64,000 nucleotides of DNA from a virus, in the IMG/VR virus record IMGVR_UViG_3300028800_000074, positions 15,132 through 79,131 of that record; one strand, written 5' to 3'. Every line of letters starts with the position of its first letter. Position 1 is the first letter of the stretch. This document shows positions 7,411 through 23,266 of the stretch, in pieces. Below the pieces are notes generated by a model that searched no databases, had not been told where the DNA came from, and was given only the letters and a program-made list of their open reading frames with translations. Position numbers and translations under genes: made by a program.

Positions 7411-10400
7411 ATGGCAGCGCGTAAGCGGCCGACCTCATCCCCCCGGGTGAGGCCCGGCATCCATATCTCGGCGGCCCTCCAGTCCCGTATCCTGCGGGCC
7501 AAGGACGGTCCGAGCTACGACCCGTTCAAGCCCTACGTTCACGATCAGGCGCTGCACCCGCCCGGCGTAACGATGGCGATGGACGACGCCTACAACTCCT
7601 TCAGCCCGACGGCTGGGTGGTCGGTCCGCAGCCTCGGCAGCGCTATCGCCGAGGGGCAGGTCTTCCTCGGCTACCCGACCTTGGCCGCGTTGCTTCAACG
7701 CGTCGAGTACATGAACGCGGTCATGTCCTACGCCGACGACATGACGCGGAAGTGGATCGAGTTCAAGGCGAGCGCCGGGACCGACAAGCAAGAGCGCATC
7801 GACGCGATTACAGACAAGTGGGACGCGCTTCAGGTGCAGGCGCGGATGAAGGATCATATCGCGCAGGCTCTCGGCTTCGGACGGGCGCACGTCTATCTCG
7901 ACACGGGCGACACCGATAATCCGGACGAGCTGAAGAAGGACATTGGCGACGGCGCTCGGTCTGCCGCCACGGCGTTCAAACTCCCGGGCAAGAAGGTGCT
8001 CGGGCTCAGGACGATTGAGCCGGTCTGGGTCAGCCCGCACGACTACGAGACCTCGAACCCGCTCAAGCCGAACTGGTACAAGCCCAACGCTTGGCACGTC
8101 ATGGCGCGCGAGGTTCATGCGAGCCGTCTTCTGACGACCATCCCGTTCCCGGTCTCCGACTTGCTCAAGCCCGCCTACTCGTTCGGCGGCATCCCGCTCA
8201 TCCAGATGGGCAAGCCATACGTCGACAACTGGCTGAACGTCAGACAGTCGACGACCGACATCGCCGAGGCCTACTCGATCTTCGTGCTTGCGACGAAGTT
8301 GCAGGACACGATGGCTGGCGGCAACGGAGACCAAGAAGTCCTCAACCGCGTGGCGCTCTTCAATCGATACCGCTCTAACAAGGGCACGATGGTCATCGAC
8401 AAGGAGACCGAGGACTTCAAGAACATCTCGGCCAATGTGTCCGGCATCGAGGCGATCCAAGCCGCGTCGCAGGAGCATATGAGCGCCGCATGGCGCATCC
8501 CGCTGGTCAAGCTCACCGGCATCTCGCCGTCCGGGCTCAATGCATCGAGCGAGGGCGAGATCAGGGTCTATTACGACCTGATCCGGAGCATGCAGGAAGG
8601 CCTCATCCGCCCCCTGCTCCAGATCGTCCTCGACTTCACGAGCATCGAGCTGTTCGGCGACGTCGATCCGGATATCACGTTCGACTTCGTCAAGCTCTTC
8701 GAGGTCACCGAGGTTGAGGCGGCCCAGATCAGGTCGGCCGATGCGCAGACCGGCACGGCGCTCATCCAGTCCGGCGTGATCTCGACCGAGGAAGAGCGGG
8801 CCCGCGTCTCCAACGACCCGGACAGCCCGTACATCGACCTCAAGGACACGCCGATCCCAGTCATGCCGGGCCCAGCCCCGGGTGAAGAGGGCTACGTCGG
8901 CGATCCGGATAACTGGCAGACCGCCCTCGAAGGGATCAACAAGCTCGGCGGCCTCCTGCCAGCGCCGGAGCCCGAGCAGCGCGCCTCACCCGGCGCATGG
9001 GAAGGGGTGCTCAAGGGCGTTCTCGCCAACGGTGGGCTTGAGAACCCGGACAACGACGGCATCGTGGCCTCCCCCGAGGCATGGAAGGCCGTGGGGGCGG
9101 GTTTGTCCGCTTCCGGGGGTCTCAGCACCCCAGACGGCTCCGAGGCCGTCCAGCAGCCTCTTGAGCCCGCCATAAGGCAGGTGTTCGGCAAGGACGCGCT
9201 CGAAGACGAGCCGCGCAAGGGTGCCGGGCAGGCTGGCGGTGGCGAATGGACGGCTCAGAGCGGCGGCGGCGCTCAGAAGTCCGCGCCCGGGAAAAATGGC
9301 ATTATTGCCGGTAATAATCCGGCCAAGCGTCCCCACGTCGCGCACTATGATCCGAAGGCGACGCAGGTCGACGCACAGGGCGTGGTTCACACCACGTCGG
9401 TCGTCGACGCCGCCCGGGCGCTCTATGACGGCAAGAAGGTCGACCTCAATCAGCCGAGAGAGGTCGCAACACTCGTCGACCATCTGGGCCAAGTCGCGAA
9501 GCATATGATCGCGATGGGCGATGCTGCGCCGAACTTCAACCTGTGCAACGTCAGCGTCGACAACACGAACATCTTCTGTGCGGTGAGCGAGGGCATCCCT
9601 CGCATCGACATGCCGCAGCTCCCGCCGAACCTGCACCCGTTCTTGTCGTTCCTCGGCGAGAAGGGTCTCGGCTTCCAGCCCGCGATGGAAAAGGCTGGCT
9701 ACCTCAGGGCGACGCAGAACGAGCTGATCGGCGCTAAGGTCGCGGCTATCGCCAAGGCGTTGCAGAACATCGATCCGCGCAAGCTCGACCCGCTCGTGGT
9801 CAGCAAGGACAACTATATCGTCGACGGTCACCATCGCTGGTCGGCGGAAGTGGCGATCTCGGCTGAGCAAGGCAACTTCGACCGGCCGCTCGAAATCTAT
9901 CGCGTCAACAGCGACATCTTGCCGCTGCTCAAGCTCGCCAACGACTTCACGGGCGGCAAGGGACATGTCGCCGGATCGCTCAAGCCGGGCGAGGCTGCGC
10001 TGAACCTGAAGACCGAGAACCATTTCCTTGATGGGGAGACCCACGCGCACGACGGCCGCCCTTTTGGCCTTGACGAGGCTCGACCGAATCAGGCCATGGA
10101 TGACTTCAGCCCGTCAGAACCGCGCAAGGGCGTGGGACAGGCTGGTGCAGGGGAGTGGACGGCGGAGGGTGGGGCTGCGGCTCCTTTTGGCAAAGGCAAG
10201 CAATCCGAGCCTTCCGCCGCTTCTCTAAGCGACAAGATCGTCTCAACCCGGAACGTGACAGCCAAGTCCACCAAGGGCGAGGCCGAGGGCAAGTACCTCC
10301 GCATCGACACCGATGCGATGAAGGCTGACCCTGAGCTGTTCAAGCACAACGTCGGCCTCTTCAAGCGCGGCGACCTCTACCCCGGTATGAAGCCCGACGA

Positions 10401-11496
10401 ACTGAAGGGCTCCGAGCAAGAGGTCGCCAAGGCCGTCATCGAGCGCATGCGCGACAACCTCGACTTCCTCGTCGGGATGGTGCCGAAGGACAAGATCAAG
10501 GCGTGGGCGCACTGGTATGAGGGGGCGCACAAATTCGCAGAGGACTTCGGCAAGAAGTATGGCGTCGACACGGCGAGCGCGGCAGGCGTGATCGCGGCCC
10601 TCTCGCCGCAGAGGCCGTGGGACGAGAACGTCTACTTCGCGGATCGCGTGATGGACATCATGAAGAACCATCCCCACGACAAGTGGGACGACGCGATGAA
10701 GTCGACCGGCGAGAGGATTTGGACGAGCGCCAAGAACGCGCCGATCCTGAAGGCCATCGAAGGCAAGCGCCTCGACGAACTTGACGACCCAGTCGCTCAG
10801 GCGGCGTGGATCAGGACGTGGAACGAGGCGCACGAAGACCGCAAGTTCGAGATCGCGAAGCCGGACGGCACGTTCGGCGGCAAGATGAAGACGGCGGCCG
10901 GAGGCTATGACACCGCGTCATGGGGATCGCTTGCGCAGACCGTGAACGCGATCCACGCTTTCCAGAGCGGCGGCGACCCGAAGAAGCTCTCCGCAATCTT
11001 GGGTGAGAGACACAAGGTTCGCAGCTTCTACAACAACATCATCGCCCCTGATGATCCTAACGGCGACGTGACGGTCGATACGCATGCTGTTGGAGCGGCG
11101 TGGTTGCAGCCGACCTCGGGGACTTCCGCTTCGGTCTGGCACAACCTAGCTAACAATCCGGGCGCAGAGGGCAAGGACCCGTTCCGGCCGAAGAACTGGG
11201 TAGCAGCCAAGGGCTCGGCGAAGCTCGGCGTGAGAGGCACGTATCCGCTCTATGCCGACGCCTATCGAGAGGCGGCGAAGGATTTGGGGCTCAAGCCCCG
11301 CGAGGTTCAGTCGGTCGCGTGGGAGATGAAGCAGCGCCTGTTCAGCGACAAGCTGACCGGCGAGAGGGTTCAGAAGGCCGTCAACGAGGTCTGGGAAGAC
11401 TACCGTGACGGCAAGCTCTCGCTGAAGGATGCGCGAGAGAAGGTAGTCTCGGTCGCGACGGCTATGCGCCCCGACCACAAGATCGACTTCAACTGA
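7411..11496 (+). CDS. Portal protein (DUF1073 type) with two fused C-terminal cargo domains (ParB-like; HhH-glycosylase-like)
   Basis: DMTRKWI, VHASRL, RIPLVKLTGISPSGLNASSEGE...YYD portal motifs in aa 1-490; IVDGHHRW; WY...AGVIAALSPQ...KVRSFYNN...VTVDTH. Confidence 0.9.
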   Translation: MAARKRPTSSPRVRPGIHISAALQSRILRAKDGPSYDPFKPYVHDQALHPPGVTMAMDDAYNSFSPTAGWSVRSLGSAIAEGQVFLGYPTLAALLQRVEYMNAVMSYADDMTRKWIEFKASAGTDKQERIDAITDKWDALQVQARMKDHIAQALGFGRAHVYLDTGDTDNPDELKKDIGDGARSAATAFKLPGKKVLGLRTIEPVWVSPHDYETSNPLKPNWYKPNAWHVMAREVHASRLLTTIPFPVSDLLKPAYSFGGIPLIQMGKPYVDNWLNVRQSTTDIAEAYSIFVLATKLQDTMAGGNGDQEVLNRVALFNRYRSNKGTMVIDKETEDFKNISANVSGIEAIQAASQEHMSAAWRIPLVKLTGISPSGLNASSEGEIRVYYDLIRSMQEGLIRPLLQIVLDFTSIELFGDVDPDITFDFVKLFEVTEVEAAQIRSADAQTGTALIQSGVISTEEERARVSNDPDSPYIDLKDTPIPVMPGPAPGEEGYVGDPDNWQTALEGINKLGGLLPAPEPEQRASPGAWEGVLKGVLANGGLENPDNDGIVASPEAWKAVGAGLSASGGLSTPDGSEAVQQPLEPAIRQVFGKDALEDEPRKGAGQAGGGEWTAQSGGGAQKSAPGKNGIIAGNNPAKRPHVAHYDPKATQVDAQGVVHTTSVVDAARALYDGKKVDLNQPREVATLVDHLGQVAKHMIAMGDAAPNFNLCNVSVDNTNIFCAVSEGIPRIDMPQLPPNLHPFLSFLGEKGLGFQPAMEKAGYLRATQNELIGAKVAAIAKALQNIDPRKLDPLVVSKDNYIVDGHHRWSAEVAISAEQGNFDRPLEIYRVNSDILPLLKLANDFTGGKGHVAGSLKPGEAALNLKTENHFLDGETHAHDGRPFGLDEARPNQAMDDFSPSEPRKGVGQAGAGEWTAEGGAAAPFGKGKQSEPSAASLSDKIVSTRNVTAKSTKGEAEGKYLRIDTDAMKADPELFKHNVGLFKRGDLYPGMKPDELKGSEQEVAKAVIERMRDNLDFLVGMVPKDKIKAWAHWYEGAHKFAEDFGKKYGVDTASAAGVIAALSPQRPWDENVYFADRVMDIMKNHPHDKWDDAMKSTGERIWTSAKNAPILKAIEGKRLDELDDPVAQAAWIRTWNEAHEDRKFEIAKPDGTFGGKMKTAAGGYDTASWGSLAQTVNAIHAFQSGGDPKKLSAILGERHKVRSFYNNIIAPDDPNGDVTVDTHAVGAAWLQPTSGTSASVWHNLANNPGAEGKDPFRPKNWVAAKGSAKLGVRGTYPLYADAYREAAKDLGLKPREVQSVAWEMKQRLFSDKLTGERVQKAVNEVWEDYRDGKLSLKDAREKVVSVATAMRPDHKIDFN
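8902..9126 (+). repeat. Three 28-aa (84-bp period) repeats PxxWxxxxxGxxxxGGL in the portal linker
   Basis: Trp codons at 8914, 8998 and 9082, exactly 84 nt apart. Confidence 0.8.
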
Positions 11497-11518
11497 ACCT
11501 CGGGAGTTTTCGTGCGAC

Positions 11519-11965
11519 ATGACCACAGAGGATGCGAAGGCGGGTCTTAATCTGGTGATGGCCTACGCCGGTAGGTGGGCGCTGGGCGTCATTGCCTCGG
11601 CGCTTGTCTCAATAGGGCTTTACGCCGTCCACCAGAACAACGACATCACGGGCCTCCTGTCGTCGCACACGCAAAACTTCGTGAGCATGCAGCGCGAGAT
11701 CGACGAGATTAAGGGCGACATCGCCAACCACAACAAGCAGATCGACGATACGCAGAGGCAGATCAAGTCGGACCTGAGCGAGGCGCAGAAAGAGTCGCAG
11801 ACGCAACTGGAGCGTCGGCAGGACGAGATCATGAGCGCGGTGCATGACGTAACGCGCGCCGTAATCGCCGCGCACTCCGACCTGATGTCTCTTCGGGCTG
11901 GTCTTTTGAACGCGAAGCCGGGTATTGTCATCCCGTTCGAAGATTCGAGCCGGGCCGAGAAATGA
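11519..11965 (+). CDS. Membrane-anchored coiled-coil protein
   Basis: One N-terminal TM (WALGVIASALVSIGLYAV) followed by heptad-rich helix. Confidence 0.75.
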   Translation: MTTEDAKAGLNLVMAYAGRWALGVIASALVSIGLYAVHQNNDITGLLSSHTQNFVSMQREIDEIKGDIANHNKQIDDTQRQIKSDLSEAQKESQTQLERRQDEIMSAVHDVTRAVIAAHSDLMSLRAGLLNAKPGIVIPFEDSSRAEK

Positions 11966-12309
11966 GATCGCAACTGATCATCGTGTTCACGGTCGCCTCT
12001 CTGGGCCAATCGGCCTCAGCGCACGCTGGCGACTGGACCGCGCAGGTCGTCGAGCGAACGCAAGGCGGGCCAGCGGCGGTCTGTAACGGTGAGCAGAGGA
12101 TCGTCGTCACGAAGAAGCGTGACGGCACCTTCGTCATCGACGGGCCGACCTGCCTTGTTCCAAGAGCGCCTGCAAATAGCTGGGCTCCTCCGCCTCCGAG
12201 GCCGCCGAGCAAGACGGTCCCTCGAAGGGTCTACCACGAGCGCTATGAGCGGCCTCACCACAAGGGTCGCGCAGGGCTGTTCGACTTCCTGTTCGGTAAG
12301 CACCAATGA
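11962..12309 (+). CDS. Exported small protein (signal peptide, 2 Cys, Pro-rich tail)
   Basis: MRSQLIIVFTVASLGQSASAHA|G. Confidence 0.7.
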   Translation: MRSQLIIVFTVASLGQSASAHAGDWTAQVVERTQGGPAAVCNGEQRIVVTKKRDGTFVIDGPTCLVPRAPANSWAPPPPRPPSKTVPRRVYHERYERPHHKGRAGLFDFLFGKHQ

Positions 12310-13976
12310 ACACGCCCGGCTCCATCGCCGTCCTCAAGTTCATGACGGAGAACGACATCCCGCTCACCCGGGAGAACTTCGTCAACACGAACTGGGGCGG
12401 CAACCCGCCTCGCCCGTGGGACGCCGAGGCCGAAGAAGAGATACCACTGGAGCTGGCCGAGTTCGGCGAGCCGGAAGAGAACCGCGAGCTTCTGGAAGAC
12501 CGTGGCGACCTCGCTGGCGACGACTGGGCCGTGATGGCATCCGGCAAGATCGTCGAAGTCCCCGCTGGCACCAAGGCTGGCGACACAGCCCCGGACATCT
12601 GGGCCAAGGACGCCTTCGACCCGCAGGAGCCGCGCAAGGACGACGGCGAGTGGACGTCGGGAGGCGGGGGCGGCGGAGCGAAGGCTGAGAAGGAGCCGGT
12701 CGTCGACGTGCCCGCATATGAGTGGGCGAAGCGTCAGATCGACAAGCACACGAAGAACAGCAAGCTGCGCGCCAAGCAGCACGAGTGGATGGCGCGGCAC
12801 AAGCAGAACGTCGACGCCTTCTTCAAGAAGAGCGACATCAAGGTCGCGCTCGACAAGGTCGCCAAGGATGCGACATCGACCACGTCGTTCACCGTCGGCG
12901 CGGCGCTCAATAAGGGCGCGGACGTCGTCTCTGATGCGCTTCAGGACGCCTTGATCGCGGTGGCGGTCGGAGCTGGCGTCGCAGCCTTCGGCGTCGGAGG
13001 TTGGCAGGTCGCAGGATCGGCGGCGCTCGCTTACGCGGTCGAAGAGCTTGGCGACTGGCTCGGGCTCACGCCGGAGAACGCGGTCAAGCTCATCAAGGCC
13101 GGAGTGCAGGAGATCGGGAAGGCGCTGAAGAAGCGCCCCCAGAAGGACGAGAACGACGACGGGATGTTCAGCCTTCTGTCGGCTCTCCCGTGGGATCACC
13201 CGGTCGACCCGAAGACGAACCCGTTCATCGAAGGCGAAGAGTTCGTGTCTCCGAACGTCAAGACTGGTCTCGATCTTCAGGACGCGATCAAGGAGACGAC
13301 GTCGCCGCGCCACAAGACGATGATCAAGGCGGCGCGCGACATCAACAAGCTCATCGGCTTCGAGAGCGAAGAACACTCAGCGATTGGCGCTTGGCTCGAC
13401 GGCGCAGAGAACAGCGTGATGTCTGTCACGCACGGCGCGACCATGGCTCAGCTCAGGACGGCGGCGGCGATGGAGGGGGCGCTTGCAAACCAGCGCTCGG
13501 TGATGATCGTCAACGAGAACGTCGGCGGCAAGGGGCTGCTCTATCACTTCGACGTCAAGGGCGACGTTCAGTCGATCCACGACGGCTTGCTGGCGAGCGG
13601 CGTCGAGTTCCACACCATCGTTCCTTCCGCCGACGGCAAGTTCACGGTATATGTCGCCTCGGCTGATTCGTCACAACGAGAGTTCAAGGCGGTTCAGAAG
13701 GCGGCGGAGCGCTTCAATGCCAAAGTCGAGTACCACAGGGTCGACGCCGAACTCGTCGGATCGGACAAAGAAGACGGCACCGACGCCGAGCAGCGAGAAG
13801 ACGCCCAGTCCCGTTACGGATCAATCATTGAAGGCGGCGGGGTTCAAGGAGCCAAAGCCATCTGGGGCCGGGTTTATTCTCGGTACAAGGCCGCCTTCGA
13901 AGACAGAGCCGTAAAGAAGCCTCGTGAAGAGAGGCCGCCGTGGCGGACGCAACAGGCTGAGGGGGCGAGAGCGTGA
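12306..13976 (+). CDS. Putative internal head/cargo protein carrying the EPR-GEW tag
   Basis: WAKD|AFDPQEPRKDDGEWTSGGGGG at about aa 100; central hydrophobic hairpin; located between portal and MuF. Confidence 0.75.
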   Translation: MNTPGSIAVLKFMTENDIPLTRENFVNTNWGGNPPRPWDAEAEEEIPLELAEFGEPEENRELLEDRGDLAGDDWAVMASGKIVEVPAGTKAGDTAPDIWAKDAFDPQEPRKDDGEWTSGGGGGGAKAEKEPVVDVPAYEWAKRQIDKHTKNSKLRAKQHEWMARHKQNVDAFFKKSDIKVALDKVAKDATSTTSFTVGAALNKGADVVSDALQDALIAVAVGAGVAAFGVGGWQVAGSAALAYAVEELGDWLGLTPENAVKLIKAGVQEIGKALKKRPQKDENDDGMFSLLSALPWDHPVDPKTNPFIEGEEFVSPNVKTGLDLQDAIKETTSPRHKTMIKAARDINKLIGFESEEHSAIGAWLDGAENSVMSVTHGATMAQLRTAAAMEGALANQRSVMIVNENVGGKGLLYHFDVKGDVQSIHDGLLASGVEFHTIVPSADGKFTVYVASADSSQREFKAVQKAAERFNAKVEYHRVDAELVGSDKEDGTDAEQREDAQSRYGSIIEGGGVQGAKAIWGRVYSRYKAAFEDRAVKKPREERPPWRTQQAEGARA

Positions 13977-14182
13977 CGCTCGAAGAAGAGCTTTTCAAAA
14001 GAGCGCAGCTTGAGGCTGAGGCGGATCGCATCCTCAGCATCGGCATCGCGCATAATCGAAAGGTGCAGCGAAACGCCAAGCGCCTTAAGCACTGGACTGG
14101 GGGCCGCCTCACCACGGCCGAGATCAATCAGATGACGGCTGAGATGAGGGCGAGGGCTGGTGACGGCAAGGTTCTCGGGTAA
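13973..14182 (+). CDS. Hypothetical protein
   Basis: GTGA overlap. Confidence 0.55.
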   Translation: MTLEEELFKRAQLEAEADRILSIGIAHNRKVQRNAKRLKHWTGGRLTTAEINQMTAEMRARAGDGKVLG

Positions 14183-15083
14183 GTGGTGCGGGCAGCCTTA
14201 CGGCAAGCCCAGCGTGCTGCTCACCCTTCCAAACCTCATGGGTCTCGACGCCAAGGCGTCAGGGAAGCCCGCTGGCGGCCGTCGGCCGTCCGTCGCGGTA
14301 GGCAGGCCCCTGCATCCGAACCTCGGTCTGGCGGCCTCCTATGGGGCGCGGCTGACCTCTCTGATCGACGAGATGCACCGGAGCGTTATCTATTGGCTCA
14401 AGGCCGAGTATCGAGCTAACCCACCAGCGACCATGGCGTTCGACGATCTCGCATCGAAGACACTGGCCGAGACGATGAAGGGTTTGGCGAAGCGGTGGCT
14501 AGGACGCTTCGATGAAATGGCGGAGAGGCTGGCCCGTTATTTCGCCCAGTCCGTATCCAAGCGGACCGACGACGCGCTCAGGAAGATTTTGAGCGACGGC
14601 GGCATGGCGCTCAGGGACTGGAAGACGACCGCCGCCCAGAAGGATGCGCTCGCGGCCATCGTCCACGAGAACGTGTCGCTGATCAAATCGATCCCGCGCG
14701 AGTATCTCGGCAAGGTCGAGCGCGACGTGATGCGGTCGGTCGCGGCCGGTCGAGACCTGAAGCAGCTCGAAGACGATCTTCAGGCACACTTCGGGGTGAC
14801 CCGAGACAGGGCTAGGCTGATCGCGGTCGACCAGAACAACAAGGCGACGGCGATGCTGCGCCGCGTCCGCGCCGTCGAGGCGGGCACGTTCACATGGGAG
14901 TGGATGCACTCCAGCGCAGGCAAGACGCCGCGCCCGACGCATCTCGCGGCCGGACGTCGTGGCCAGCGGTTCGACATCCGAGAGGGATGGTTCGATCCGC
15001 ATGAGGGCCGCAAGGTTCAGCCGGGCGAATTGATCCGGTGCCGATGTACTTGCCGACCGGTTTTCCCCGGCCTACCGTCCTGA
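14160..15083 (+). CDS. Head morphogenesis protein (MuF / SPP1 gp7 family)
   Basis: ENVSLIKSI, RARLIAVDQNNKA, PRPTH, PGELIRCRC. Confidence 0.92.
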   Translation: MTARFSGKWCGQPYGKPSVLLTLPNLMGLDAKASGKPAGGRRPSVAVGRPLHPNLGLAASYGARLTSLIDEMHRSVIYWLKAEYRANPPATMAFDDLASKTLAETMKGLAKRWLGRFDEMAERLARYFAQSVSKRTDDALRKILSDGGMALRDWKTTAAQKDALAAIVHENVSLIKSIPREYLGKVERDVMRSVAAGRDLKQLEDDLQAHFGVTRDRARLIAVDQNNKATAMLRRVRAVEAGTFTWEWMHSSAGKTPRPTHLAAGRRGQRFDIREGWFDPHEGRKVQPGELIRCRCTCRPVFPGLPS

Positions 15084-15128
15084 AAGGTGATTCGGCGTTG
15101 CCGACACCACGTTGGAAGGAGAGAGCCA

Positions 15129-15515
15129 ATGCCGCGTGGAAAAGCGAAGATGCCGATGAGGCTGAGACATCCGCCGACCCAGAACTATCACCGGGATGAG
15201 CCAGCGCCGCCGACGCACCGGCCTCCACCCAGCGCCGGGGCCGAAGGCAAGAGCACTGGACTTCACTCGGTCCAGTACGACTTCGATATTCGCGTAAGCG
15301 AACTGGTTCGCTTCAACGAGCGTCTTGAGCGCCTTCGCAACGAGTTGCTGGGGGTGGCGGACATGAGCGGCGAAGGACAGGAGCAGAAGCCCGAGCCGAT
15401 GGGCATCCTCCCAAGGTCGCAAGCGTCGTGTGCTGCAATCGGGGGTCAGATCGTTCACGCGAACGACGTCCTTGATGACATTATGACCGCGTGCGGCGTC
15501 GTGGAGAATTATTGA
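15129..15515 (+). CDS. Hypothetical protein
   Basis: GGAAGGAGAGAG RBS before ATG 15129. Confidence 0.65.
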   Translation: MPRGKAKMPMRLRHPPTQNYHRDEPAPPTHRPPPSAGAEGKSTGLHSVQYDFDIRVSELVRFNERLERLRNELLGVADMSGEGQEQKPEPMGILPRSQASCAAIGGQIVHANDVLDDIMTACGVVENY

Positions 15516-15526
15516 AGGGTTTCGAC

Positions 15527-15643
15527 ATGAAACTGGCGCTCGCGGTCTTCTTCATCTTCACGCTCGCAGGCTGCGCGGCCGGTCCGGGCTCGACGCAGAA
15601 CTGCTTTCTGTCTCCGGGGCAGCAGGGCTGCTTCACGCCGTGA
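15527..15643 (+). CDS. Small lipoprotein, 38 aa (not in ORF track)
   Basis: MKLALAVFFIFTLAG|CAAGPGSTQNCFLSPGQQGCFTP; canonical lipobox LAGC; stop overlaps GTG 15640. Confidence 0.75.
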   Translation: MKLALAVFFIFTLAGCAAGPGSTQNCFLSPGQQGCFTP

Positions 15644-15843
15644 CGACGCCAGACTTCGATGAGCGCCAGTTCCTGCTCAACATCTACTCCGGGCCGCGCG
15701 TCAGTCTGGAGTGGGTCAATGACTTCGAGTCGGCGCGGGCCCGCGCCGACGCTCTTCTTCGTGCTGGCGGGGTTGATCGCGTTGTCGTTCATGGGCCGGA
15801 CGTCGCTGGCCCGTTCGAGGCCCGGACCCCCTACCATGGCTGA
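15640..15843 (+). CDS. Hypothetical protein
   Basis: Overlap-coupled ORF. Confidence 0.55.
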   Translation: MTTPDFDERQFLLNIYSGPRVSLEWVNDFESARARADALLRAGGVDRVVVHGPDVAGPFEARTPYHG

Positions 15844-16105
15844 GACTGAGCAGCCGCTGATCGGCACCTTCTGCGAGACGTACAGGATCAAGAACGCGAC
15901 GAGCGAGATCGGCGGCTTCTGGCGTATCGGCATGTTCTTCTGCGATGCGCAGGACGCCGCGACGGCCGAGAAGGTGGCGAAGTACAAGGCGATGCAGAAG
16001 CACGGCCTCATGCCCTATTTTCTGTCGACGGCGAGGGTGATCCCGTTCGGGTTGCCTGACCCCGGCCAAGCGCTGCGCAAGAAGGTCGAGAAGAAAACCA
16101 AATGA
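15836..16105 (+). CDS. Hypothetical protein
   Basis: Probable start MAETEQP; overlap-coupled. Confidence 0.6.
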   Translation: MAETEQPLIGTFCETYRIKNATSEIGGFWRIGMFFCDAQDAATAEKVAKYKAMQKHGLMPYFLSTARVIPFGLPDPGQALRKKVEKKTK

Positions 16106-16299
16106 GCCGGAAGCTGGCGGTCCTGTTCGACCTCTTGGAAACCGTGGTCATCGACAAACAGGTTGAGGCGAAGATCGTCGAGATCACGGCCCTCCCAGCT
16201 CAGAACGGTGAGGTCCGCATCCTCTACCACGTCGAATGGTTCAACAACGGCGCGCTCCTTTCAGCGAACATCGACGAGGACAGGCTGACCGCGAAATGA
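16102..16299 (+). CDS. Hypothetical protein (small SH3-like)
   Basis: ATGA overlaps; YxVxW motif. Confidence 0.65.
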   Translation: MSRKLAVLFDLLETVVIDKQVEAKIVEITALPAQNGEVRILYHVEWFNNGALLSANIDEDRLTAK

Positions 16300-16565
16300 G
16301 CTTCGGCTGGCGCAAGGCTTTACGCGAAATGTTCGGTCTCAAGTCGCCGGATGATGCCCGGTCCGAGCAGTCCCAGCCGAAGCTCTTCGCCGATGGGACA
16401 TGGGCTCCAAGGGTCTTCACGAGGGTGTGGAGGTCGTCGAACGGGAACACGACGCTTATTCTCAACTTCGACGAAGACCCGAACCGAGATGGGTGGAACT
16501 GGGGCCGACCGTGGACGAGGCTGACCGAGATCGCGCCCGGCATGTTTCGAGGCGATGATCGATGA
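16296..16565 (+). CDS. Hypothetical protein
   Basis: ATGA overlap. Confidence 0.6.
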   Translation: MSFGWRKALREMFGLKSPDDARSEQSQPKLFADGTWAPRVFTRVWRSSNGNTTLILNFDEDPNRDGWNWGRPWTRLTEIAPGMFRGDDR

Positions 16566-16807
16566 TTCGTCCTGCCTGCTACATCTGCCTGCAAGAGCTT
16601 CCAGAGAGCTTCACCTTCACGAAGGGCGAGCCGCCGCCGCGTGACGCTTGGTACTGGACGAACGTAACGCCAGACGCCTCACCGCCTCCGTTTGGTAGTG
16701 GGCCCGTGATGCGACCGGTGCATGACCGGTGCAAGCCGCTGCCTACGCTAGTCGCCAGTGCGAGAACGGTGGCGGGGGATCGCGGGGCTCAGGGGCTGGC
16801 GGAGTAG
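16562..16807 (+). CDS. Zn-finger-like hypothetical protein
   Basis: CYIC...HDRC. Confidence 0.6.
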   Translation: MIRPACYICLQELPESFTFTKGEPPPRDAWYWTNVTPDASPPPFGSGPVMRPVHDRCKPLPTLVASARTVAGDRGAQGLAE

Positions 16808-16940
16808 CACCAATGGCCTTGCGCGCGATTGCCGTGATTTCCATGATCGCCGCTATGTCCGCCTGAACCAAGCGCGGACTGAGAAGGAGTTGCAATTCGA
16901 TTGATGCGATGCGCTGCTCTACCGCTTGGTTGTTTGTCAT
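16743..16940 (-). CDS. Small antisense-strand hypothetical protein
   Basis: GAAAGAGAGAGcccgATG start; fills a gap in the + strand gene chain. Confidence 0.45.
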   Translation of the reverse strand: MTNNQAVEQRIASIELQLLLSPRLVQADIAAIMEITAIARKAIGATPPAPEPRDPPPPFSHWRLA

Positions 16941-17043
16941 CGGGCTCTCTCTTTCGCTCAATGGCCAAAGATAATCGGACTACGTCCGAGCCGGATAGTT
17001 GTCACCCCTCGGAAACTACTCAAACGTCGCCACGGAGCTTGTG

Positions 17044-17394
17044 ATGTCTCTCAGCCCGCTCGTCGCGCTCTTGGTGTTGCTGGCCGCGTCTTCAGCTCAC
17101 GCCGAGAGCTACTGCGGGAAGCCTGAGAACGATGCGGTTCTCAAGCTCATCCCAGACGCCAAGATCGAGACGCTCACGAAGAGCCAGTTCTACTACGCGC
17201 TCGGCATCTGGAACGGACAACCTCCGATTGGGCGTGGACCGGACGACGTGGACGGCGCTGAGATCGTGACAAGCCCGGACGGCAAGAGAGCAGCGGTCTT
17301 GTTCACGCTGGGGCCGCTGTTGTGTGGAGGGATTGCTCCGGCTCCGCCTCAGGTCATCGAGATGATCCGAAAGATTGATGGAGGGGAGCTGTGA
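17044..17394 (+). CDS. Exported small protein (signal peptide, 2 Cys)
   Basis: MSLSPLVALLVLLAASSAHA|ESYC. Confidence 0.75.
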   Translation: MSLSPLVALLVLLAASSAHAESYCGKPENDAVLKLIPDAKIETLTKSQFYYALGIWNGQPPIGRGPDDVDGAEIVTSPDGKRAAVLFTLGPLLCGGIAPAPPQVIEMIRKIDGGEL

Positions 17395-17768
17395 TCCGCT
17401 GGGCCGTCGCGTTCTTGCTTCTTGCGTCGCCTGCCGTTGCGCATACGAACTGCGACGGGTCGAGCGCGAGCAAGGTCCAAGGGTGCTGCGGTCCGGAAGA
17501 CTCGCTCCATGTGAGTCCCGGCGACGTGAGCCGCGACGGCGACGTCTGGTACGTCAAGATCGATGGCGCGATGCACGCGCTGATCAACGGAGCTGGCAAC
17601 CCCATCCAGCTCATGCCGCAGGACGATCAGGGCCACGGCTCCTGCTACACGGTCTGGTACCGGCGCGAGGTCACGAAGGGCAGCAGCTCTTTCGATCCCA
17701 ACAATACGCACGGCGGAAGCGGTGATGTGTACCACTTCTACTGCTTCCAAGGACCATACACCTTTTAA
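17391..17768 (+). CDS. Exported Cys-rich small protein
   Basis: MIRWAVAFLLLASPAVA|H; GCCG...CY...YCF. Confidence 0.75.
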   Translation: MIRWAVAFLLLASPAVAHTNCDGSSASKVQGCCGPEDSLHVSPGDVSRDGDVWYVKIDGAMHALINGAGNPIQLMPQDDQGHGSCYTVWYRREVTKGSSSFDPNNTHGGSGDVYHFYCFQGPYTF

Positions 17769-17806
17769 GACCTTCTGAAGGAGAGAGCAGAAGTGGACAC
17801 ACGACA

Positions 17807-18271
17807 GTGAAGAACGACGAAGAATGGGTTTCGCTGAACCCGCCTAGGGGTGGACGAGCTCCGTCCCTGCCTCCTGACTGGATCAGGGTGTCGATGAACA
17901 TCGCTGATGCAGGGAACGAGGCCTTCATCCGCTTCGGTGGAAGGTGGGCCGCGTGGGCGCTCAAGGCGAAGAGCATCGCCGTCATGCTCGGCGGCACGAA
18001 GCTCAACAAGCTCAAGCTCACGCCAGATGAGAACGGTTTCCGCGTAAGCAAGGGCAACCCGAAGAGCGTCACGGCGGTTGTCCGGCTACGCCACGTAGGC
18101 CAGTGGCCACGCGAAGAGCGTCCGCTCACCTTCGCCGAGGTCAAGGTGCTCGACGACGGTTCGCTCATCATCTTCCTCCCCGAGACGTTCGGGCAGAAGA
18201 AGATCGTCGCCGCGATGGCGGGTCGCCCGGCAATCCCGGCCGGAGCCATGGGCGGTGGAAACAGGCGGTGA
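17807..18271 (+). CDS. Hypothetical protein
   Basis: Phage-like codon use; upstream purine-rich RBS. Confidence 0.65.
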   Translation: MKNDEEWVSLNPPRGGRAPSLPPDWIRVSMNIADAGNEAFIRFGGRWAAWALKAKSIAVMLGGTKLNKLKLTPDENGFRVSKGNPKSVTAVVRLRHVGQWPREERPLTFAEVKVLDDGSLIIFLPETFGQKKIVAAMAGRPAIPAGAMGGGNRR

Positions 18272-18474
18272 GCCTAGCTGACCGCTATATCGGCGAGGAC
18301 GGAGGTCCGCCTACCGGCAAGCCGAAGAAGCGGTTGCCGAAGTCCGATATTGACAACCTGATCAACAAGGTCTTTCGAGGCTTCAACATCGGGGCGTCCA
18401 TCTCGGATCGATTCGAGGCGCACGACGCGATGGCGAAGCTAGCCAAGGTCTTGAGAAACGAACATGTCGCCTGA
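18268..18474 (+). CDS. Hypothetical protein
   Basis: GTGA overlap start. Confidence 0.6.
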   Translation: MSLADRYIGEDGGPPTGKPKKRLPKSDIDNLINKVFRGFNIGASISDRFEAHDAMAKLAKVLRNEHVA

Positions 18475-18751
18475 GCACACACCGGCTCGACCCTCGAAGT
18501 GCTGCCCCGCTCTATCCCGTCGCCTCATGGGCGCGGTCGGGTTTCATGCCTACCCCATGATGAACGCCTACGCCGGATGGTTCGAGCCGATCTCTGGGCG
18601 GATCAACGTCGAGTGGCTCTCGCCGGAAGAGGTTAAGGTCCGGCACGATAAGCTCGTAGCAGAGGGTCAGAAGCGGACCTTCCAGATGGTCAACGGCATC
18701 GTCGTGGAGGCCAACGTCGACGATCTCAATGCAATCTCGGAGCGCGTGTGA
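18464..18751 (+). CDS. Hypothetical protein
   Basis: Overlap-coupled. Confidence 0.55.
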   Translation: MSPEHTPARPSKCCPALSRRLMGAVGFHAYPMMNAYAGWFEPISGRINVEWLSPEEVKVRHDKLVAEGQKRTFQMVNGIVVEANVDDLNAISERV

Positions 18752-18969
18752 TGGCTGACCCCGTGGTGACCCTCGTGCAGGGCGACAAGGTCTCCGACAA
18801 AGAGCGCGCCGAGTGGCACAAGCAGAACATCGCCAAGGCGGCAGAGACGCTCTTCGCCGCCATGGACCTCGCGGTCAGCGAGGACTTCGTCATCAACTTC
18901 CAGCCCACCATAAACATAGCGATCAAAAAGCACATGATCGCGGTGCTGGGCGTCGGGAGGATGTGGTGA
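18748..18969 (+). CDS. Hypothetical protein
   Basis: Overlap-coupled. Confidence 0.6.
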   Translation: MMADPVVTLVQGDKVSDKERAEWHKQNIAKAAETLFAAMDLAVSEDFVINFQPTINIAIKKHMIAVLGVGRMW

Positions 18970-19265
18970 CGGCGATTGGCGGATGGGACATCGTCCACGA
19001 GTGCGATGACGGCTATCACGTCGTCTGGCTCCTGAGCAACGACAAGGGCGAAGAGCTGGCGCACGCCGAGGGCTTCCGGCGCGGGGAGAACGGCGGGTAC
19101 GTCTGGTACCCCTACGCGATGGACCCGAGCGACCCCGAGCATCTGATCCGTCTCGGTCCGTCGGCGCACAGCGACATCGAACTCGTGAAGAAACAGTGCG
19201 AGGCAGTCATCGAGGGGTCCAAGAGCCCTTACGCGGACAGCGTCGCCTACGTGATCGGAGGTTGA
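18966..19265 (+). CDS. Hypothetical protein
   Basis: GTGA overlap, GGGAGG RBS. Confidence 0.6.
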   Translation: MTAIGGWDIVHECDDGYHVVWLLSNDKGEELAHAEGFRRGENGGYVWYPYAMDPSDPEHLIRLGPSAHSDIELVKKQCEAVIEGSKSPYADSVAYVIGG

Positions 19266-19268
19266 GGC

Positions 19269-19976
19269 GTGGGCAGCAACGGCAAACTCGGCATGGACGC
19301 TTGGAAGAAGGCGTTCGCGAAGGACTGCTGGATGAAGGGCGCGAAGGACGACAACGAGTCCATGGCGGCCGAGCAGGACGACAGCGGCGGCATGACCGGC
19401 GACGTCCCCGGCTTCGAGACCTCGCATGTGCCAACCTTCAGCCCCGAGGACTTCGAGCGCTTGGGCGCACGGAAGGCCAAGGGCAACGACGACGCCTATC
19501 GCGGATGGACGCCCGGTGGCGGTGCGCCACAGCCGATCACGACCAGATCAACTCCGGCAGCGCCTAAGCGCCCGGAGTACCGTGGGTGGACCCCGGGTGG
19601 TGGCGCACCGATGTCGAAGGACGGCATCGTGAGCGGCATCAAGAGCGCGGCGAAGTCGGCGTTCGCGGCAGCGAGGAAGCCTTACCCGTCGTCAACTCCG
19701 GGCGACCCGTTTCACCTTCCGAGCGCGACGCCGAAGAACGGCTTCTCGATGCGGAACGGTCGCGGCGCTCATGACTCGCCGACCGACAAGACGCCCGATC
19801 AACCGTCCGGCTTCGACAAGGGCGGCATGGTGCGCGGCATGGATTACCTGAAGAAGGGCCAGAGGCGTCTCGGCAAGGCTGGCGCGATGGACGTCATCCT
19901 GAAGACGAAGCGCCCCAGTAGTGGCGTCAGCACTTCGCTCCGGCACGAAGTAGAGGACTTGCAGGACTCGGTGTGA
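19269..19976 (+). CDS. Low-complexity protein with many [AGS]-x-D sites (putative internal head peptide precursor)
   Basis: GMD, AKD, AKD, GND, SKD, AHD, GFD, GMD, AMD; duplicated YRGWTPGGGAP; GGAGG RBS. Confidence 0.7.
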   Translation: MGSNGKLGMDAWKKAFAKDCWMKGAKDDNESMAAEQDDSGGMTGDVPGFETSHVPTFSPEDFERLGARKAKGNDDAYRGWTPGGGAPQPITTRSTPAAPKRPEYRGWTPGGGAPMSKDGIVSGIKSAAKSAFAAARKPYPSSTPGDPFHLPSATPKNGFSMRNGRGAHDSPTDKTPDQPSGFDKGGMVRGMDYLKKGQRRLGKAGAMDVILKTKRPSSGVSTSLRHEVEDLQDSV

Positions 19977-19998
19977 GTCCTGAAGCGAGGAGAGAGAG

Positions 19999-20238
19999 AT
20001 GCTGAATCACATCGAAGTCAACGACCGCCTTACCCGCCTTGAGCGCTTCGTCGCCGAGATCGGCTCGCACATCTCGTCGGACAGTATTTCGCCAGAGCTG
20101 GAGCAGTTCGTCGCGGCCGATCAGGCGAGGATCGACAAGGAGCGTGAAGAGCAGTCGGCGAATGAGCCCGGCGAGGCCCACGACGGCGGCCCGATGCCGC
20201 CCGAGGGCGACGGCACCGACCCTGACGCGCCTCGTTGA
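19999..20238 (+). CDS. Acidic small protein with SSD/AAD/AHD sites
   Basis: GAGGAGAGAGAG RBS. Confidence 0.7.
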   Translation: MLNHIEVNDRLTRLERFVAEIGSHISSDSISPELEQFVAADQARIDKEREEQSANEPGEAHDGGPMPPEGDGTDPDAPR

Positions 20239-20390
20239 CGATCAGGCACGTCTGCGCCTTCTGTTCGACGAATAACGCGATGCAGATGGGCTCGACCGCG
20301 ACCAAGAACGGGCGGACCGGCGTCGTGAAGTGGTGGAACTTGCTCCACTGCATCAAGTGCCGCCGCTCGTATCGGATCGGTCGAACATGA
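20235..20390 (+). CDS. Small Zn-ribbon protein, 51 aa (not in ORF track)
   Basis: TTG start overlapping upstream stop; CAFC...CIKC; ATGA overlap downstream. Confidence 0.65.
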   Translation: MTIRHVCAFCSTNNAMQMGSTATKNGRTGVVKWWNLLHCIKCRRSYRIGRT

Positions 20391-20551
20391 ACTGGGCGCT
20401 CGCTCACTTGCGCCATAAGATGCGCGTCAAGGGCTATGGCCTCGTTCGAGACCGGCGCAGATGGCGGAACGAGCGCAATCACTGGCGCGTGCGGCGACAG
20501 ATGATGTCGCTCTTCGAGGCGGCGGGATTTTTCGAGGCCGAGAGCCAATGA
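20387..20551 (+). CDS. Small Arg-rich protein
   Basis: ATGA overlaps at both ends. Confidence 0.55.
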   Translation: MNWALAHLRHKMRVKGYGLVRDRRRWRNERNHWRVRRQMMSLFEAAGFFEAESQ

Positions 20552-20790
20552 GCTTCAATGTTCAAGGATGGTCGAAGTGCTTCTCGCATGATTGCTGGAA
20601 GCCGAAGACTGCCGCGAAGGACGATTGGGGCGACTATCATCGGGTCGGTGGGATGAACTTCCCGACCGCGAAGACGGCCGAGCGCATCGATCACGCTGGT
20701 CTCAATAAGGAGACGCGCACTCCCGGGAACATGCGCGAAGACGAAGGTCTCGGCCAGTCCATCAGGGACGACCGGGACATGAGCTGGTAA
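20548..20790 (+). CDS. Small protein sharing the N-terminal motif of the 19269 gene
   Basis: WSKCFSHDCWKPKTAAKDD versus WKKAFAKDCWMKGAKDD. Confidence 0.65.
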   Translation: MSFNVQGWSKCFSHDCWKPKTAAKDDWGDYHRVGGMNFPTAKTAERIDHAGLNKETRTPGNMREDEGLGQSIRDDRDMSW

Positions 20791-20809
20791 CCGCAGCTCT
20801 CCCTTTCAG

Positions 20810-23266
20810 ATGCGTCGACCTGTCGGGTTCGCCCGAGCGCTTGCGCTCGACGACTTCAATGCGGCTGAGCCTCGCGCCAACAATGGCCAGTGGGCAGCGG
20901 CTCCGGGCGGGGGCTTCACGCTCAGGCCAGACGCGGCCAGTGCCGCTACCCGTTACAGAAGGGCAACGGAGCGAGCGCAGTCTGCTCTGCCTGACGACGA
21001 CGAATATCAGCGTCTTCTGGAGCAGGGGCGGAAGCTCGAAGGCCTGAAGGCCGCCGTCCGCGATCCCCTGACCGGGAAGATCATGACCGGGCGTGATCAC
21101 AACGCGGCGTTCTACTCGCACGATAAGGATGCGCAGGCGCGCATCAAGGCGACACTGACGCCCGGACGAGACCCGGTGACGAACGTCGCGACCAATAGGT
21201 GGAACTACGAAGGGCCAAACGTCGGCTTTACTCGTGGTGGATCATTTTTCTCGCGTCAGCAGGTCGAGGACATGCTTAAGGCGCGCGATGATCAGGATTT
21301 ATCCGAAGCGCTTCACGGTGCCTCCTACGAGGATGTGCGCTCGAAGCGCAGTTCAATCGCCAGCACCATCGCCCGCTTCCATAATCGTGAGGGCGGAGAA
21401 CCCATGTTCGGTGGAGATCGAAGGAAAGTGTTCGCGCACGACGCAATCGATGCAGAGATGGCGTTCGATGAAGCCCAGACCACGCGATCTTATGATCCGT
21501 TCGGTCGGCTCAACCTCGACCTGACGCCGATCTCGAAGGCGACCGTCAATCCATATCAGGGGAAGGAAATCCCCGACTGGCAGAAGCTCAAGCTTGACCC
21601 CGAAAAGGTCTACATGCTGCTTCGCCATCCCGACGAACTGAAGCGCGCAGCCGCGAGCTTCAACAATGTGCCGCTGCTCTATCGTCACAAGCCGACGAGC
21701 GCCGAGAACCATCCACGCGATCTCGTTGTGGGGACGACCGGCGAGCGCGCAGTTTATCAGCACCCCTACCTCTACAACTCGATGTCCGTCTGGGACGACA
21801 ACGACGGCATCGAGGGCATCGAGAACAACAAGGCTCGCGCTCTCTCGTGTGGCTACGCCTATGACCCGGACATGAGGCCGGGCGTCTACGAGGGGCAGCG
21901 TTACGACGGCGTGATGCGCAACATCAGGGGCAATCACGTCATCCTCACAAAGGAAGGCCGCGCCGGGCCGGACATCATCGTTGGCGACTCAATGGAGAAC
22001 CTCAACATGGCAACTGCACCGAAGCTTTCTCCGGTGGCATTGGTCGCTCGAAGGGCGGTCAGGCAGCACCTTACGCCGCTCATGGCGGCCGACGCGGCGA
22101 TTGACATCACGCCCGCCTTCGTCGGCCTCAAGCAGCTCGACGAGCGATCCCAGCAGATCGTTCACGCGCGGGTCGGCCAGCTCGTGCGCGGCAAGCTCAA
22201 CGCGGCGCTGGCGATGGACGATGTGAGCGCCGGGCTCCGTGCGCTGCTCGAAGCGCTTGGCGGAGGCGGCGAGCCCGACATGGGCGGCGGCGTCGACGAC
22301 GTCTCCCCTCCCGGGACCGAGGCCGAGGGCATGCCCGAGACCGACCTCGCGACCGGCGCAGAGCCGGACACGATGCAGCTCGAAACCGACGCCGCTCCCC
22401 CGGAGGATACCTCTGGCGGCAACGACCCGCCTCCGATGCAGGGCGCTGGCGGCGATCCGGCTGCGATGGAGCAGGCGGGTCCGGCACCGCAGGGCGGCGA
22501 AGGCGCGGCAGGACCGATTGAGAAGGTCCGCAGCTACCTCATGACCGTCCTGAACCCCGCCGAGATGCAGCATCTCGAACTCCTCATCTCCGAAGTCGAC
22601 AGCGGCGACGGAGGGGAGCCGGACCCGACCATGCAGGCGGGAGGCTCAGAGAAGCCCGGTGGCGGCCATCCGCCGATGGCCGGTGCTGGTGGACCTCCCG
22701 GCCCCGACAAGGGCGCTGGCGGGCCTCCTATGGCCGCTGGCGGCCCTCCCAAGCCTCCCGGCGCTGGCGGACCTCCGCCGAAGCCCGGCGCGGGTGGGCC
22801 TCCCGATCCCAAGAAGCAAACCGGGGATAACCCCCCTCGAACCGCAGGAACGCCGCAGGTCGGCGGAAAGGACAGAAACATGGCAGGTGATCAGGCCTTC
22901 GTCAGCCGGGCCGACCTTCAGGCTGCGCTCGCGGCGAACGACAAGCTCCATCGTGAGCGTGCGGAAGCCCGGGCTTTCATCCGACCGTTTGTCGGGGAAC
23001 TCACCGGGCTCGCGATGGACGCGGCTCCGAACGACGTCATCAAGGCCGCGCTCAAGATCAAGGGCATGTCCGACGCCGACCTGAAGCCAATTCAGGACAC
23101 GGCCGCGCTCAAGCTCCTGCTCGGCGCTCAGTCGAAGGCCGAAGCGTCGCGTGAGAGAGCGCCCCGCATGGCGCTCGATTCGAAGGCGACGTCGAAGGAC
23201 GAGCCCTTCAGCATCGAGGCCGTCACCGGTCTCAAGAACTTCGGAAGGATCGGACGCGCGGCCTAA
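20810..23266 (+). CDS. Prohead protease (DUF2213 type)/scaffold with N-terminal tagged cargo domain
   Basis: TPISKATVNPYxGxEIP, LSCGYxY, YDGVMRNIRGNHV, GRAG; Gly/Pro-rich scaffold; N-terminal LALD|DFNAAEPRANNGQW. Confidence 0.88.
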   Translation: MRRPVGFARALALDDFNAAEPRANNGQWAAAPGGGFTLRPDAASAATRYRRATERAQSALPDDDEYQRLLEQGRKLEGLKAAVRDPLTGKIMTGRDHNAAFYSHDKDAQARIKATLTPGRDPVTNVATNRWNYEGPNVGFTRGGSFFSRQQVEDMLKARDDQDLSEALHGASYEDVRSKRSSIASTIARFHNREGGEPMFGGDRRKVFAHDAIDAEMAFDEAQTTRSYDPFGRLNLDLTPISKATVNPYQGKEIPDWQKLKLDPEKVYMLLRHPDELKRAAASFNNVPLLYRHKPTSAENHPRDLVVGTTGERAVYQHPYLYNSMSVWDDNDGIEGIENNKARALSCGYAYDPDMRPGVYEGQRYDGVMRNIRGNHVILTKEGRAGPDIIVGDSMENLNMATAPKLSPVALVARRAVRQHLTPLMAADAAIDITPAFVGLKQLDERSQQIVHARVGQLVRGKLNAALAMDDVSAGLRALLEALGGGGEPDMGGGVDDVSPPGTEAEGMPETDLATGAEPDTMQLETDAAPPEDTSGGNDPPPMQGAGGDPAAMEQAGPAPQGGEGAAGPIEKVRSYLMTVLNPAEMQHLELLISEVDSGDGGEPDPTMQAGGSEKPGGGHPPMAGAGGPPGPDKGAGGPPMAAGGPPKPPGAGGPPPKPGAGGPPDPKKQTGDNPPRTAGTPQVGGKDRNMAGDQAFVSRADLQAALAANDKLHRERAEARAFIRPFVGELTGLAMDAAPNDVIKAALKIKGMSDADLKPIQDTAALKLLLGAQSKAEASRERAPRMALDSKATSKDEPFSIEAVTGLKNFGRIGRAA

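Follow-up and report, generated by a model that had tools for sequence, protein, structure and literature searches.

How does a tailed phage that carries unrelated domains as parts of its head proteins set these domains free, and what marks them for handling in the capsid? The question is raised by a 79-kb virus record from IMG/VR (IMGVR_UViG_3300028800_000074; CheckV completeness 91%), of which we analysed positions 15,132 to 79,131, a stretch of 64,000 nucleotides referred to here as the window. Three genes in its head region, encoding a portal protein, a 556-amino-acid (aa) protein starting at position 12306 (the 12306 protein) and a protease-scaffold protein, share a short peptide motif that we call the header tag. 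Each copy stands directly behind a small-x-Asp tripeptide and in front of a linker and a further domain. We report that the tag belongs to a widespread family and that the residue upstream of it covaries with the type of protease encoded by the phage. The two elements probably form a composite mark, a lineage-specific prohead-protease site followed by a near-universal header tag, by which modules would be cut free in the capsid and injected with the DNA. The three carriers and their four sites with tags are:

7411..11496, plus strand: portal polyprotein, 1361 aa; PF06381 at residues 90-447 (7e-73), DUF7178, phrog_146 (portal)
9184..9252, plus strand: site and tag 1, portal F592-T614, FGKD595 then ALEDEPRKGAGQAGGGEWT
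10090..10161, plus strand: site and tag 2, portal Q894-T917, QAMD897 then DFSPSEPRKGVGQAGAGEWT
12306..13976, plus strand: 12306 protein, 556 aa, arranged as leader, tag and cargo
12600..12656, plus strand: site and tag 3, 12306 protein W99-T117, WAKD102 then AFDPQEPRKDDGEWT
20810..23266, plus strand: DUF2213 protease-scaffold protein, 818 aa; PF09979 (4.7e-42), phrog_2229 (1.8e-95)
20840..20896, plus strand: site and tag 4, protease L11-A29, LALD14 then DFNAAEPRANNGQWA

All four copies singled out by the initial annotation are present and in frame; a fifth was found neither in real open reading frames (ORFs) in the six frames of the window nor, with a tag profile, in the 15 kb of the record outside it. 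Among the 35 window proteins counted (13,401 aa in total) the pattern EPR-x(3-10)-G[EQ]W occurs four times against an expectation of 0.002, and at least one occurrence arose in 3 of 1,500 shuffles. The spacing between EPR and G[EQ]W, originally given as three to seven residues, extends from three to eight, the longest belonging to both portal copies, which contain a five-residue Gly/Ala insertion. The assignment to three head-region genes stands with two amendments: the 12306 protein is no known structural protein and bears its tag behind an acidic leader of 102 residues, and the protease copy lies at the extreme N-terminus behind a leader of just 14. All four copies conform to one definition, [EQ]PR-x(3+)-G-x-W-[TA] with an aromatic residue and [DN]P upstream and a Gly-rich linker and a domain downstream. 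Over 15 codons the two portal tags differ at six synonymous and two non-synonymous positions, which argues for selection on the peptide and not on the DNA. In AlphaFold2 (AF2) models the tag and linker are disordered and do not dock onto the following domain.

Homologues of the portal extension are polyvalent proteins, in which DUF7178, ParB-like, ADP-ribosyltransferase, NUDIX and other domains are joined to portals or proteases. Each carries one to three copies of a canonical tag, [FY][DN]P-x-[EQ]PRD-xx-G[RK]WT, with a Gly run, either N-terminally or between domains. A back-translated DNA pattern for EPRDxxG[RK]WT gave at least 150 matches in viral contigs; all 150 listed are in frame in long ORFs and have flanking residues in common that the pattern left unspecified. 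Among the matches listed the tag is C-terminal in only one of 110 complete ORFs and falls within the first 60 residues in 36%. A profile built from 120 tags and searched against 1.84 billion proteins (cut-off E<=0.001) retrieved 1,724 cluster representatives, with up to eight tags per protein, and the tag occurs across many bacterial phyla. Its carriers are four portal families, proteases of the S78, XkdF and DUF2213 types, MuF and capsid domains, and the effectors in tag-bearing proteins include topoisomerase IB, ADP-ribosyltransferases, GNAT, inorganic pyrophosphatase, zeta toxin, Acb1 and 2H phosphoesterases; conjugation-type domains are absent from the domains of these proteins. Such a range of carriers refutes a specificity of the tag for phages with DUF2213 and DUF1073, in which it had been expected to be enriched. 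Nor is it always preceded by A-x-D: Lys/Arg or other residues stand before it in most phages, and tags at the very N-terminus have nothing in front of them to cut off.

The phage studied here possesses a charge-swapped form, EPR-K..G-E-W, that has diverged from the widespread canonical tag; its positions 3 and 7 read K..E three times and A..Q once. In a sample of tags that left both positions free, Asp at position 3 is accompanied by Arg/Lys at position 7 in 74/88, and a residue other than Asp by a non-basic position 7 in 9/12 (N..E, A..I, A..V). This suggests that the two positions pair inside a turn, and the residues of this phage can be read as a charge swap. The 12306 copy matches the canonical-tag profile with E 2.7e-7, and the portal copies obtain only a partial score because of their insertion. 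In P0075, which is homologous to the 12306 protein, a domain boundary inside the chain bears an additional tag that the present phage lacks, indicating that tags are gained and lost at junctions. As a separate observation, two polypeptides (P0035 and L056:3369-7514) unite leader, tag, DUF7178, S78 protease and major capsid protein, so that cargo, protease and shell are made together. A profile search of the PDB returned chance matches to acetylcholinesterase only and no solved structure with the tag, no Pfam model covers the tag segments, and full-text searches, whose reach left out most papers in subscription journals, found no relevant description of the motif. The header tag looks to be undescribed.

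What varies between lineages is the residue upstream of the tag, at position -5/-6 relative to the Glu of EPR, a distance that is constant. Among the matches listed, the general logo at this position shows mainly Lys, Arg or Ala. When the tags are sorted by the protease of the locus, Asp is found in 12 of 13 tags in DUF2213 loci vs 1 of 34 in S78 loci (Fisher 4e-8), whereas Lys/Arg occupies the position in 28 of 34 tags in S78 loci and in 1 of 13 in DUF2213 loci. Records that are at least 90% complete show an acidic upstream residue in 8/8 cases with DUF2213 and Lys in 3/3 with S78. A whole-record search with PF09979 revealed six more DUF2213 phages (L007, L010, L021, L031, L041/L084 and L116), whose tags all follow Asp; their protease genes lie outside the DNA originally fetched and their type was not known when the tags were scored, so that they served as blind predictions. 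Asp is invariant before all 20 aligned tags from DUF2213-encoding phages, the protease domains of the aligned homologues being 22-45% identical. Within proteins that contain at least three tags the upstream class is uniform to a majority share of 0.887 vs 0.641 after shuffling, a value that 0 of 2,000 shuffles reach. The initial annotation had the DUF2213 protease cutting before the tags; by this comparison the Asp behaves as the P1 residue, immediately ahead of a cut, and release with the tag as a new N-terminus is plausible.

Similar sites are found in the head proteins away from any tag, and they can be set beside the protease domain itself:

7570..7596, plus strand: predicted portal N-terminal site T-M-A-M-D58/D59-A-Y, aligned with V-A-M-D72/S-A-Y of the Pa193 portal
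21485..21991, plus strand: DUF2213 protease domain; H293, S346 and H376 invariant in an alignment of 11 homologues
22079..23182, plus strand: predicted self-processing sites in the scaffold part, LMAAD428/A, LAMD470/D, LAMD737/A and MALD790/S
24470-24496, plus strand: predicted capsid maturation site L-A-F-D48/A49, at the start of homology to mature capsid proteins

The tripeptide A-[ML]-D occurs nine times in the proteins of the window, seven times in the portal, the 12306 protein and the protease-scaffold protein (Fisher 3.6e-4). LMAAD428/A and LAMD470/D are located just past the protease domain and are kept in two relatives (L002 and L005), and LAMD737/A and MALD790/S lie near the C-terminus. 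The capsid-protein N-terminus reads LAFD/AQP here and LAMD/AQP or MAMD/AQP in relatives, and the Pa193 capsid protein reads SGSAMD64/SN (E217/Pa193: SAMD64/S). The capsid protein of E217 was modelled from residue 66 (PMC10329688), and 93 N-terminal residues of the Pa193 portal are missing from the map and from liquid chromatography-mass spectrometry (PMC11042391), a segment within which VAMD72/SAY falls. These cryo-EM and mass-spectrometric gaps are in line with loss of both N-termini. Taken together, the positions fit a DUF2213 protease site with Asp at P1 and a small residue at P3.

The protease-scaffold protein consists of the tag, an N-terminal module (residues 30-215), the DUF2213 domain (residues 226-394), a Gly/Pro-rich linker and a scaffold-like C-terminal part. 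Its PF09979 match spans the whole domain (positions 1-167 of 167), and H293, S346 and H376 are the candidate catalytic set. Assemblin-type capsid proteases use a Ser-His-His catalytic set, into which the DUF2213 residues would fit. The protein also matches the scaffolding protein gp24 of Pa193 (PDB 9b40), whose N-terminal half is DUF2213-like. A complex prediction for the DUF2213 domain and a segment comprising site and tag gave a score of 0.02, which is no answer and is counted neither way.

The modules behind the tags are unrelated to each other. In the portal polyprotein the order is portal core, tag, ParB/sulfiredoxin (Srx) module, tag and DUF7178 module:

9352..9969, plus strand: cargo module 1, ParB/Srx fold with a DGHHRW motif (portal residues ~648-853); AF2, Foldseek, phrog_1033/2859
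10228..11493, plus strand: cargo module 2, DUF7178, probable HhH-GPD glycosylase-like fold; PF23802, AF2 pLDDT 92.8

Foldseek related the AF2 model of module 1 to ParB-N and Srx with a probability of up to 1.00. For the DUF7178 model, a Foldseek search of the PDB found nothing at E<=0.001, and the 22 best VIA-align matches are all HhH-GPD DNA glycosylases or queuine-salvage DUF2419 proteins (Z 8.8-4.2). The fold call is that of VIA-align, whose Z of 8.8 is moderate for a helical protein, and for DUF7178 an HhH-GPD-like structure is a probable fold rather than a functional assignment. It is a frequent cargo of tagged polyvalent proteins and is found on many different carriers. The 12306 protein, which may be a membrane-active ejection protein, is composed of the acidic leader (residues 1-102), the tag, a hydrophobic Gly/Ala-rich stretch (residues 212-246) and a conserved C-terminal domain; it has three relatives only among 5.8 billion proteins and no Pfam or PHROGs family. 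Its hydrophobic stretch (12939-13043) is conserved, with a mean Kyte-Doolittle value of 1.9 over 19 residues. No relatives of the N-terminal module of the protease were detectable, and the ESM Atlas offered nothing usable for this module or for the C-terminal part of the 12306 protein.

The reading that we favour would work as follows. The first part of the mark would be where the prohead protease encoded by the phage itself cuts (small-x-Asp in the case of DUF2213), and the second part, directly downstream, the header tag with its Gly-rich linker and cargo module. Portal, protease-scaffold protein and the 102-residue leader would carry the modules into the prohead, where the protease would cut after Asp595 and Asp897 of the portal, Asp102 of the 12306 protein and its own Asp14, at sites of the same kind as those on the capsid protein, the portal N-terminus and the scaffold. 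Such cuts would free the ParB/Srx module, the HhH-GPD-like DUF7178 module and the hydrophobic 12306 protein, as well as the N-terminal module of the protease if its junction to the protease domain were cut too. The tag would remain as the new N-terminus of each released module, and the modules would exit with the DNA. What is observed is the motif, how widely and where it occurs, and that the upstream residue changes with the family of the protease, and sequence comparison lends good support to a cut ahead of the tag; cleavage itself, packaging and injection are what we infer. Our best guess for the tag is a capsid-internal handling signal that serves retention, positioning or exit.

Several observations weigh against this account. 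The tags of related phages and of duplicated cassettes are not independent, so that the Fisher values overstate the support; even so, the upstream residue keeps to the pattern in many lineages. Two near-complete genomes (L036 and L086) have Glu upstream and no detected DUF2213, one subgroup with weak DUF2213 similarity also has Glu, and among 112 tags whose loci have no detected protease 23 are preceded by Asp, only a part of which has been resolved. Two of the sites in this phage are G-K-D and A-K-D, not A-[ML]-D. The Pa193 and E217 evidence consists of missing density and missing peptides, not of N-terminal sequencing, and the 1361-aa portal might be assembled uncut. Moreover, the capsid and scaffold sites lack a tag, which means that the tag is not needed for cutting; conversely, tags on chromosomal toxins and at extreme N-termini imply that cutting is not needed for the tag.

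The chromosomal toxins form an alphaproteobacterial group in which a conserved N-terminal domain of ~110 aa, a Lys and the tag precede a CDI EC869-like or REase (Tox-REase-5) toxin. A CdiI immunity gene adjoins, and the surroundings are housekeeping and ordinary chromosomal genes with no head module. PHROGs yielded nothing for the N-terminal domain. In four loci (L146, L158, L215 and L236) and ~25 others the sequence before the toxin reads K-[YA]-N-[FY]-NPDEPRDWHGRWT. These toxins extend the tag beyond head-protein fusions and keep a function in the recipient cell in play. Cultured phages are rarely tagged; the two actinophages listed below, after an example of the toxins, provide a tractable system for testing the tag:

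L158:2046-3521: example of a tagged chromosomal toxin
L158:1546-2121: the CdiI gene belonging to it
L289:2995-3756: Mycobacterium phage Predator gp14, capsid maturation protease; tag MSFNPRQPRDRLGRWA at residues 3-15, no upstream site
L290:2992-3702: Nocardia phage P3.1, capsid maturation protease; tag MARRKFNPRQPRDLRGRWK at residues 6-18, no upstream site

Three other explanations have to be weighed. The tag could act in the recipient cell and not in the capsid, for example by helping the delivered enzyme to cross the membrane, to refold or to become active, the upstream site merely freeing the module. The tagged CDI EC869-like and Tox-REase-5 chromosomal toxins with their CdiI genes speak for this, as do the conservation of the tag across phyla over which phage head proteins are not conserved and the failure to find a conserved phage partner. 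We nevertheless judge it unlikely, given that in the cultured actinophages it is the capsid maturation protease, for which no function in the next host is known, that is tagged directly, and that the chromosomal toxins could themselves travel through phage or gene-transfer-agent heads. A second possibility places the tag's function in the cleavage step: located on the primed side of the scissile bond, it would dock flexible linkers or leaderless cargo to the prohead protease by way of a surface shared among protease folds, with the S1 pocket setting P1. A constant distance of -5/-6 from P1 to tag and a P1 residue that changes with protease family while the tag does not are what such docking would produce. 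It is very unlikely in our view, as it needs one exosite conserved over three Pfam protease families and has to contend with tagless sites in capsid, portal and scaffold, with leaderless N-terminal tags that offer nothing to remove, and with proteases that are mostly untagged in tag-bearing phages or separated from their tag by a cargo domain.

It could also be that no cleavage takes place, that the Asp is an inherited flank and that tag and Gly linker are a passive boundary or a recombination joint for shuffling cassettes among carriers. The extra tag of P0075 at a domain boundary, the presence of DUF7178 behind tags on many carriers and the disorder of the tag in AF2 models are in keeping with this. 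Inheritance, however, does not account for the recurrence of A-[MLF]-D in capsid protein, portal and scaffold at points that Pa193 and E217 lose or leave disordered, nor for an Asp that tracks DUF2213 across proteases as dissimilar as those aligned here. In a passive linker, E, P, R, G and W would not stay almost unchanged from one phylum to the next, and positions 3 and 7 would not pair. This explanation strikes us as very unlikely. The composite mark of protease site and header tag can also be taken much further: the tag might be a universal portable address for cargo in HK97-fold capsids, read by a structural feature that proheads or exit channels share in all tailed phages; this address each phage pairs with its own protease site, and alphaproteobacterial chromosomal toxin-immunity modules would use it to ride prophage or gene-transfer-agent heads. 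In this broad form the proposal is distinctly unlikely.

Further roles and partners were considered and dropped. A targeting signal for the protease itself was rejected since most proteases in tag-bearing phages are untagged and the tagged ones, which belong to environmental phages, have a cargo domain of 167-656 aa before the protease domain. Self-cleavage at Asp-Pro or Asn-Pro inside the tag was set aside because this pair is missing from ~40% of the tags (for instance in the HDVSDEPRD form) among the matches listed. MuF, present in 10 of 17 complete tag-bearing genomes, was rejected as a reader of the tag. As to a dedicated reader gene, an all-against-all BLAST of ORFs with the tags masked, at BLAST sensitivity and within flanks of 5-14 kb, revealed no protein family in more than 32 of 120 tag loci.

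The head module in which the carriers reside occupies window positions 2919-25444 and runs from the terminase large subunit through a 713-aa protein, the portal, two small ORFs, the 12306 protein, MuF, unassigned ORFs and the protease-scaffold protein to the decoration and major capsid proteins. A megablast search of cultured phages with the region returned no match. Its remaining assigned members are:

2919-4454: terminase large subunit
14160..15083, plus strand: MuF-like head protein, 307 aa; PF04233 at residues 185-298, phrog_324
23316..24284, plus strand: XM1 gp53-like decoration (minor capsid) protein; PF23982 (1.2e-14)
24341..25444, plus strand: major capsid protein; phrog_264

MuF ends nine residues past its Pfam domain and thus lacks a C-terminal extension, as had been noted at the outset. 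The 713-aa protein between terminase and portal (5258-7399) matches no family; it combines a signal peptide with a tail rich in Ala, Thr and Gln. Between the portal and the 12306 protein (11519-12309) are two small genes for membrane or secreted proteins, one with a membrane helix at its N-terminus, a coiled coil and weak similarity to an Rz-like spanin (phrog_739, 6e-5), the other with a signal peptide. The 5.7 kb from MuF to the protease gene (15087-20800) contain small ORFs only, on both strands, which is unusual for a head module; these ORFs have no PHROG match and no tags.

Portal- and MuF-fused effectors and polyvalent proteins have been predicted before (Iyer, Burroughs, Anand, de Souza, Aravind 2017, PMC5512222), and the portal described here resembles them: unrelated effector domains stand in one chain among the head genes, joined to portal or MuF, with packaging and injection as their predicted fate. 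It combines at least two unrelated effector-type domains (ParB/Srx and DUF7178) in a gene among the head genes of a terminase-portal phage, and the typical polyvalent cargo, namely ParB-like, ADP-ribosyltransferase, NUDIX and 2H domains, also appears in tagged proteins. That paper does not, as far as we could see, speak of a tag common to the domains, of Gly-rich linkers or of prohead-protease sites separating them; it ascribes processing to internal zincin-like peptidase domains, whereas here the prohead protease is itself a carrier. The capsid targeting sequence of T4 on IPI-III and Alt, which is removed by the gp21 prohead protease (PMC3012670, PMC9026906), is likewise a short peptide beside a prohead-protease site that marks head-carried, injected proteins. 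The T4 signal, however, lies upstream of the cut and is lost, while the header tag lies downstream of the predicted cut, behind leaders that are not conserved, and would stay on the cargo; and the former is specific to T4-like phages, whereas the latter is found in phages whose head proteins are unrelated. For T4 and the phiKZ-like phages it is established that the prohead protease processes injected head proteins. Many ejection proteins inside the heads of the giant phages phiKZ and SPN3US are cut by this protease at a single short motif and ejected into the host (PMC7411985, PMC10052503), but their sites were defined by proteomics and no shared downstream tag has been described for them, while the sites reported here are predictions from sequence.

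Polymorphic toxins have pre-toxin boundary motifs, and the alphaproteobacterial tagged toxins share with MuF polymorphic toxins the order of conserved carrier, boundary, variable toxin and immunity gene. In the paper that describes the MuF toxins of temperate phages (Jamet et al. 2017, PMC5576092) the words motif, linker, cleavage and junction do not occur, and the MuF of the window, unlike these, carries no toxin. The heads of the Pbunavirus phages Pa193 and E217 (PDB 9b40, 8frs) are similar, with related capsid, decoration and DUF2213-like scaffold proteins and A-M-D at the N-termini of capsid protein and portal. In contrast to the phage studied here, the portal of Pa193 has no cargo extension and its portal-to-capsid genes and downstream tail genes are free of header tags. 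In the literature that could be searched, which is incomplete, we found no description of a shared downstream tag, of its pairing with a protease-family-specific site or of Asp at P1 for DUF2213.

If the grammar of cut site plus tag is true, the injected proteins of uncultured phages would become readable from sequence, including the start of each module, the protease that sets it free and the cargo genes that lie outside polyproteins. It would also provide a first specificity, Asp at P1, for the uncharacterised DUF2213 family, which includes proteins of therapeutic Pbunavirus phages, and the tag would be a small portable handle for testing and engineering the loading of proteins into phage heads. 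Its presence on chromosomal toxins hints at an undescribed delivery route for them.

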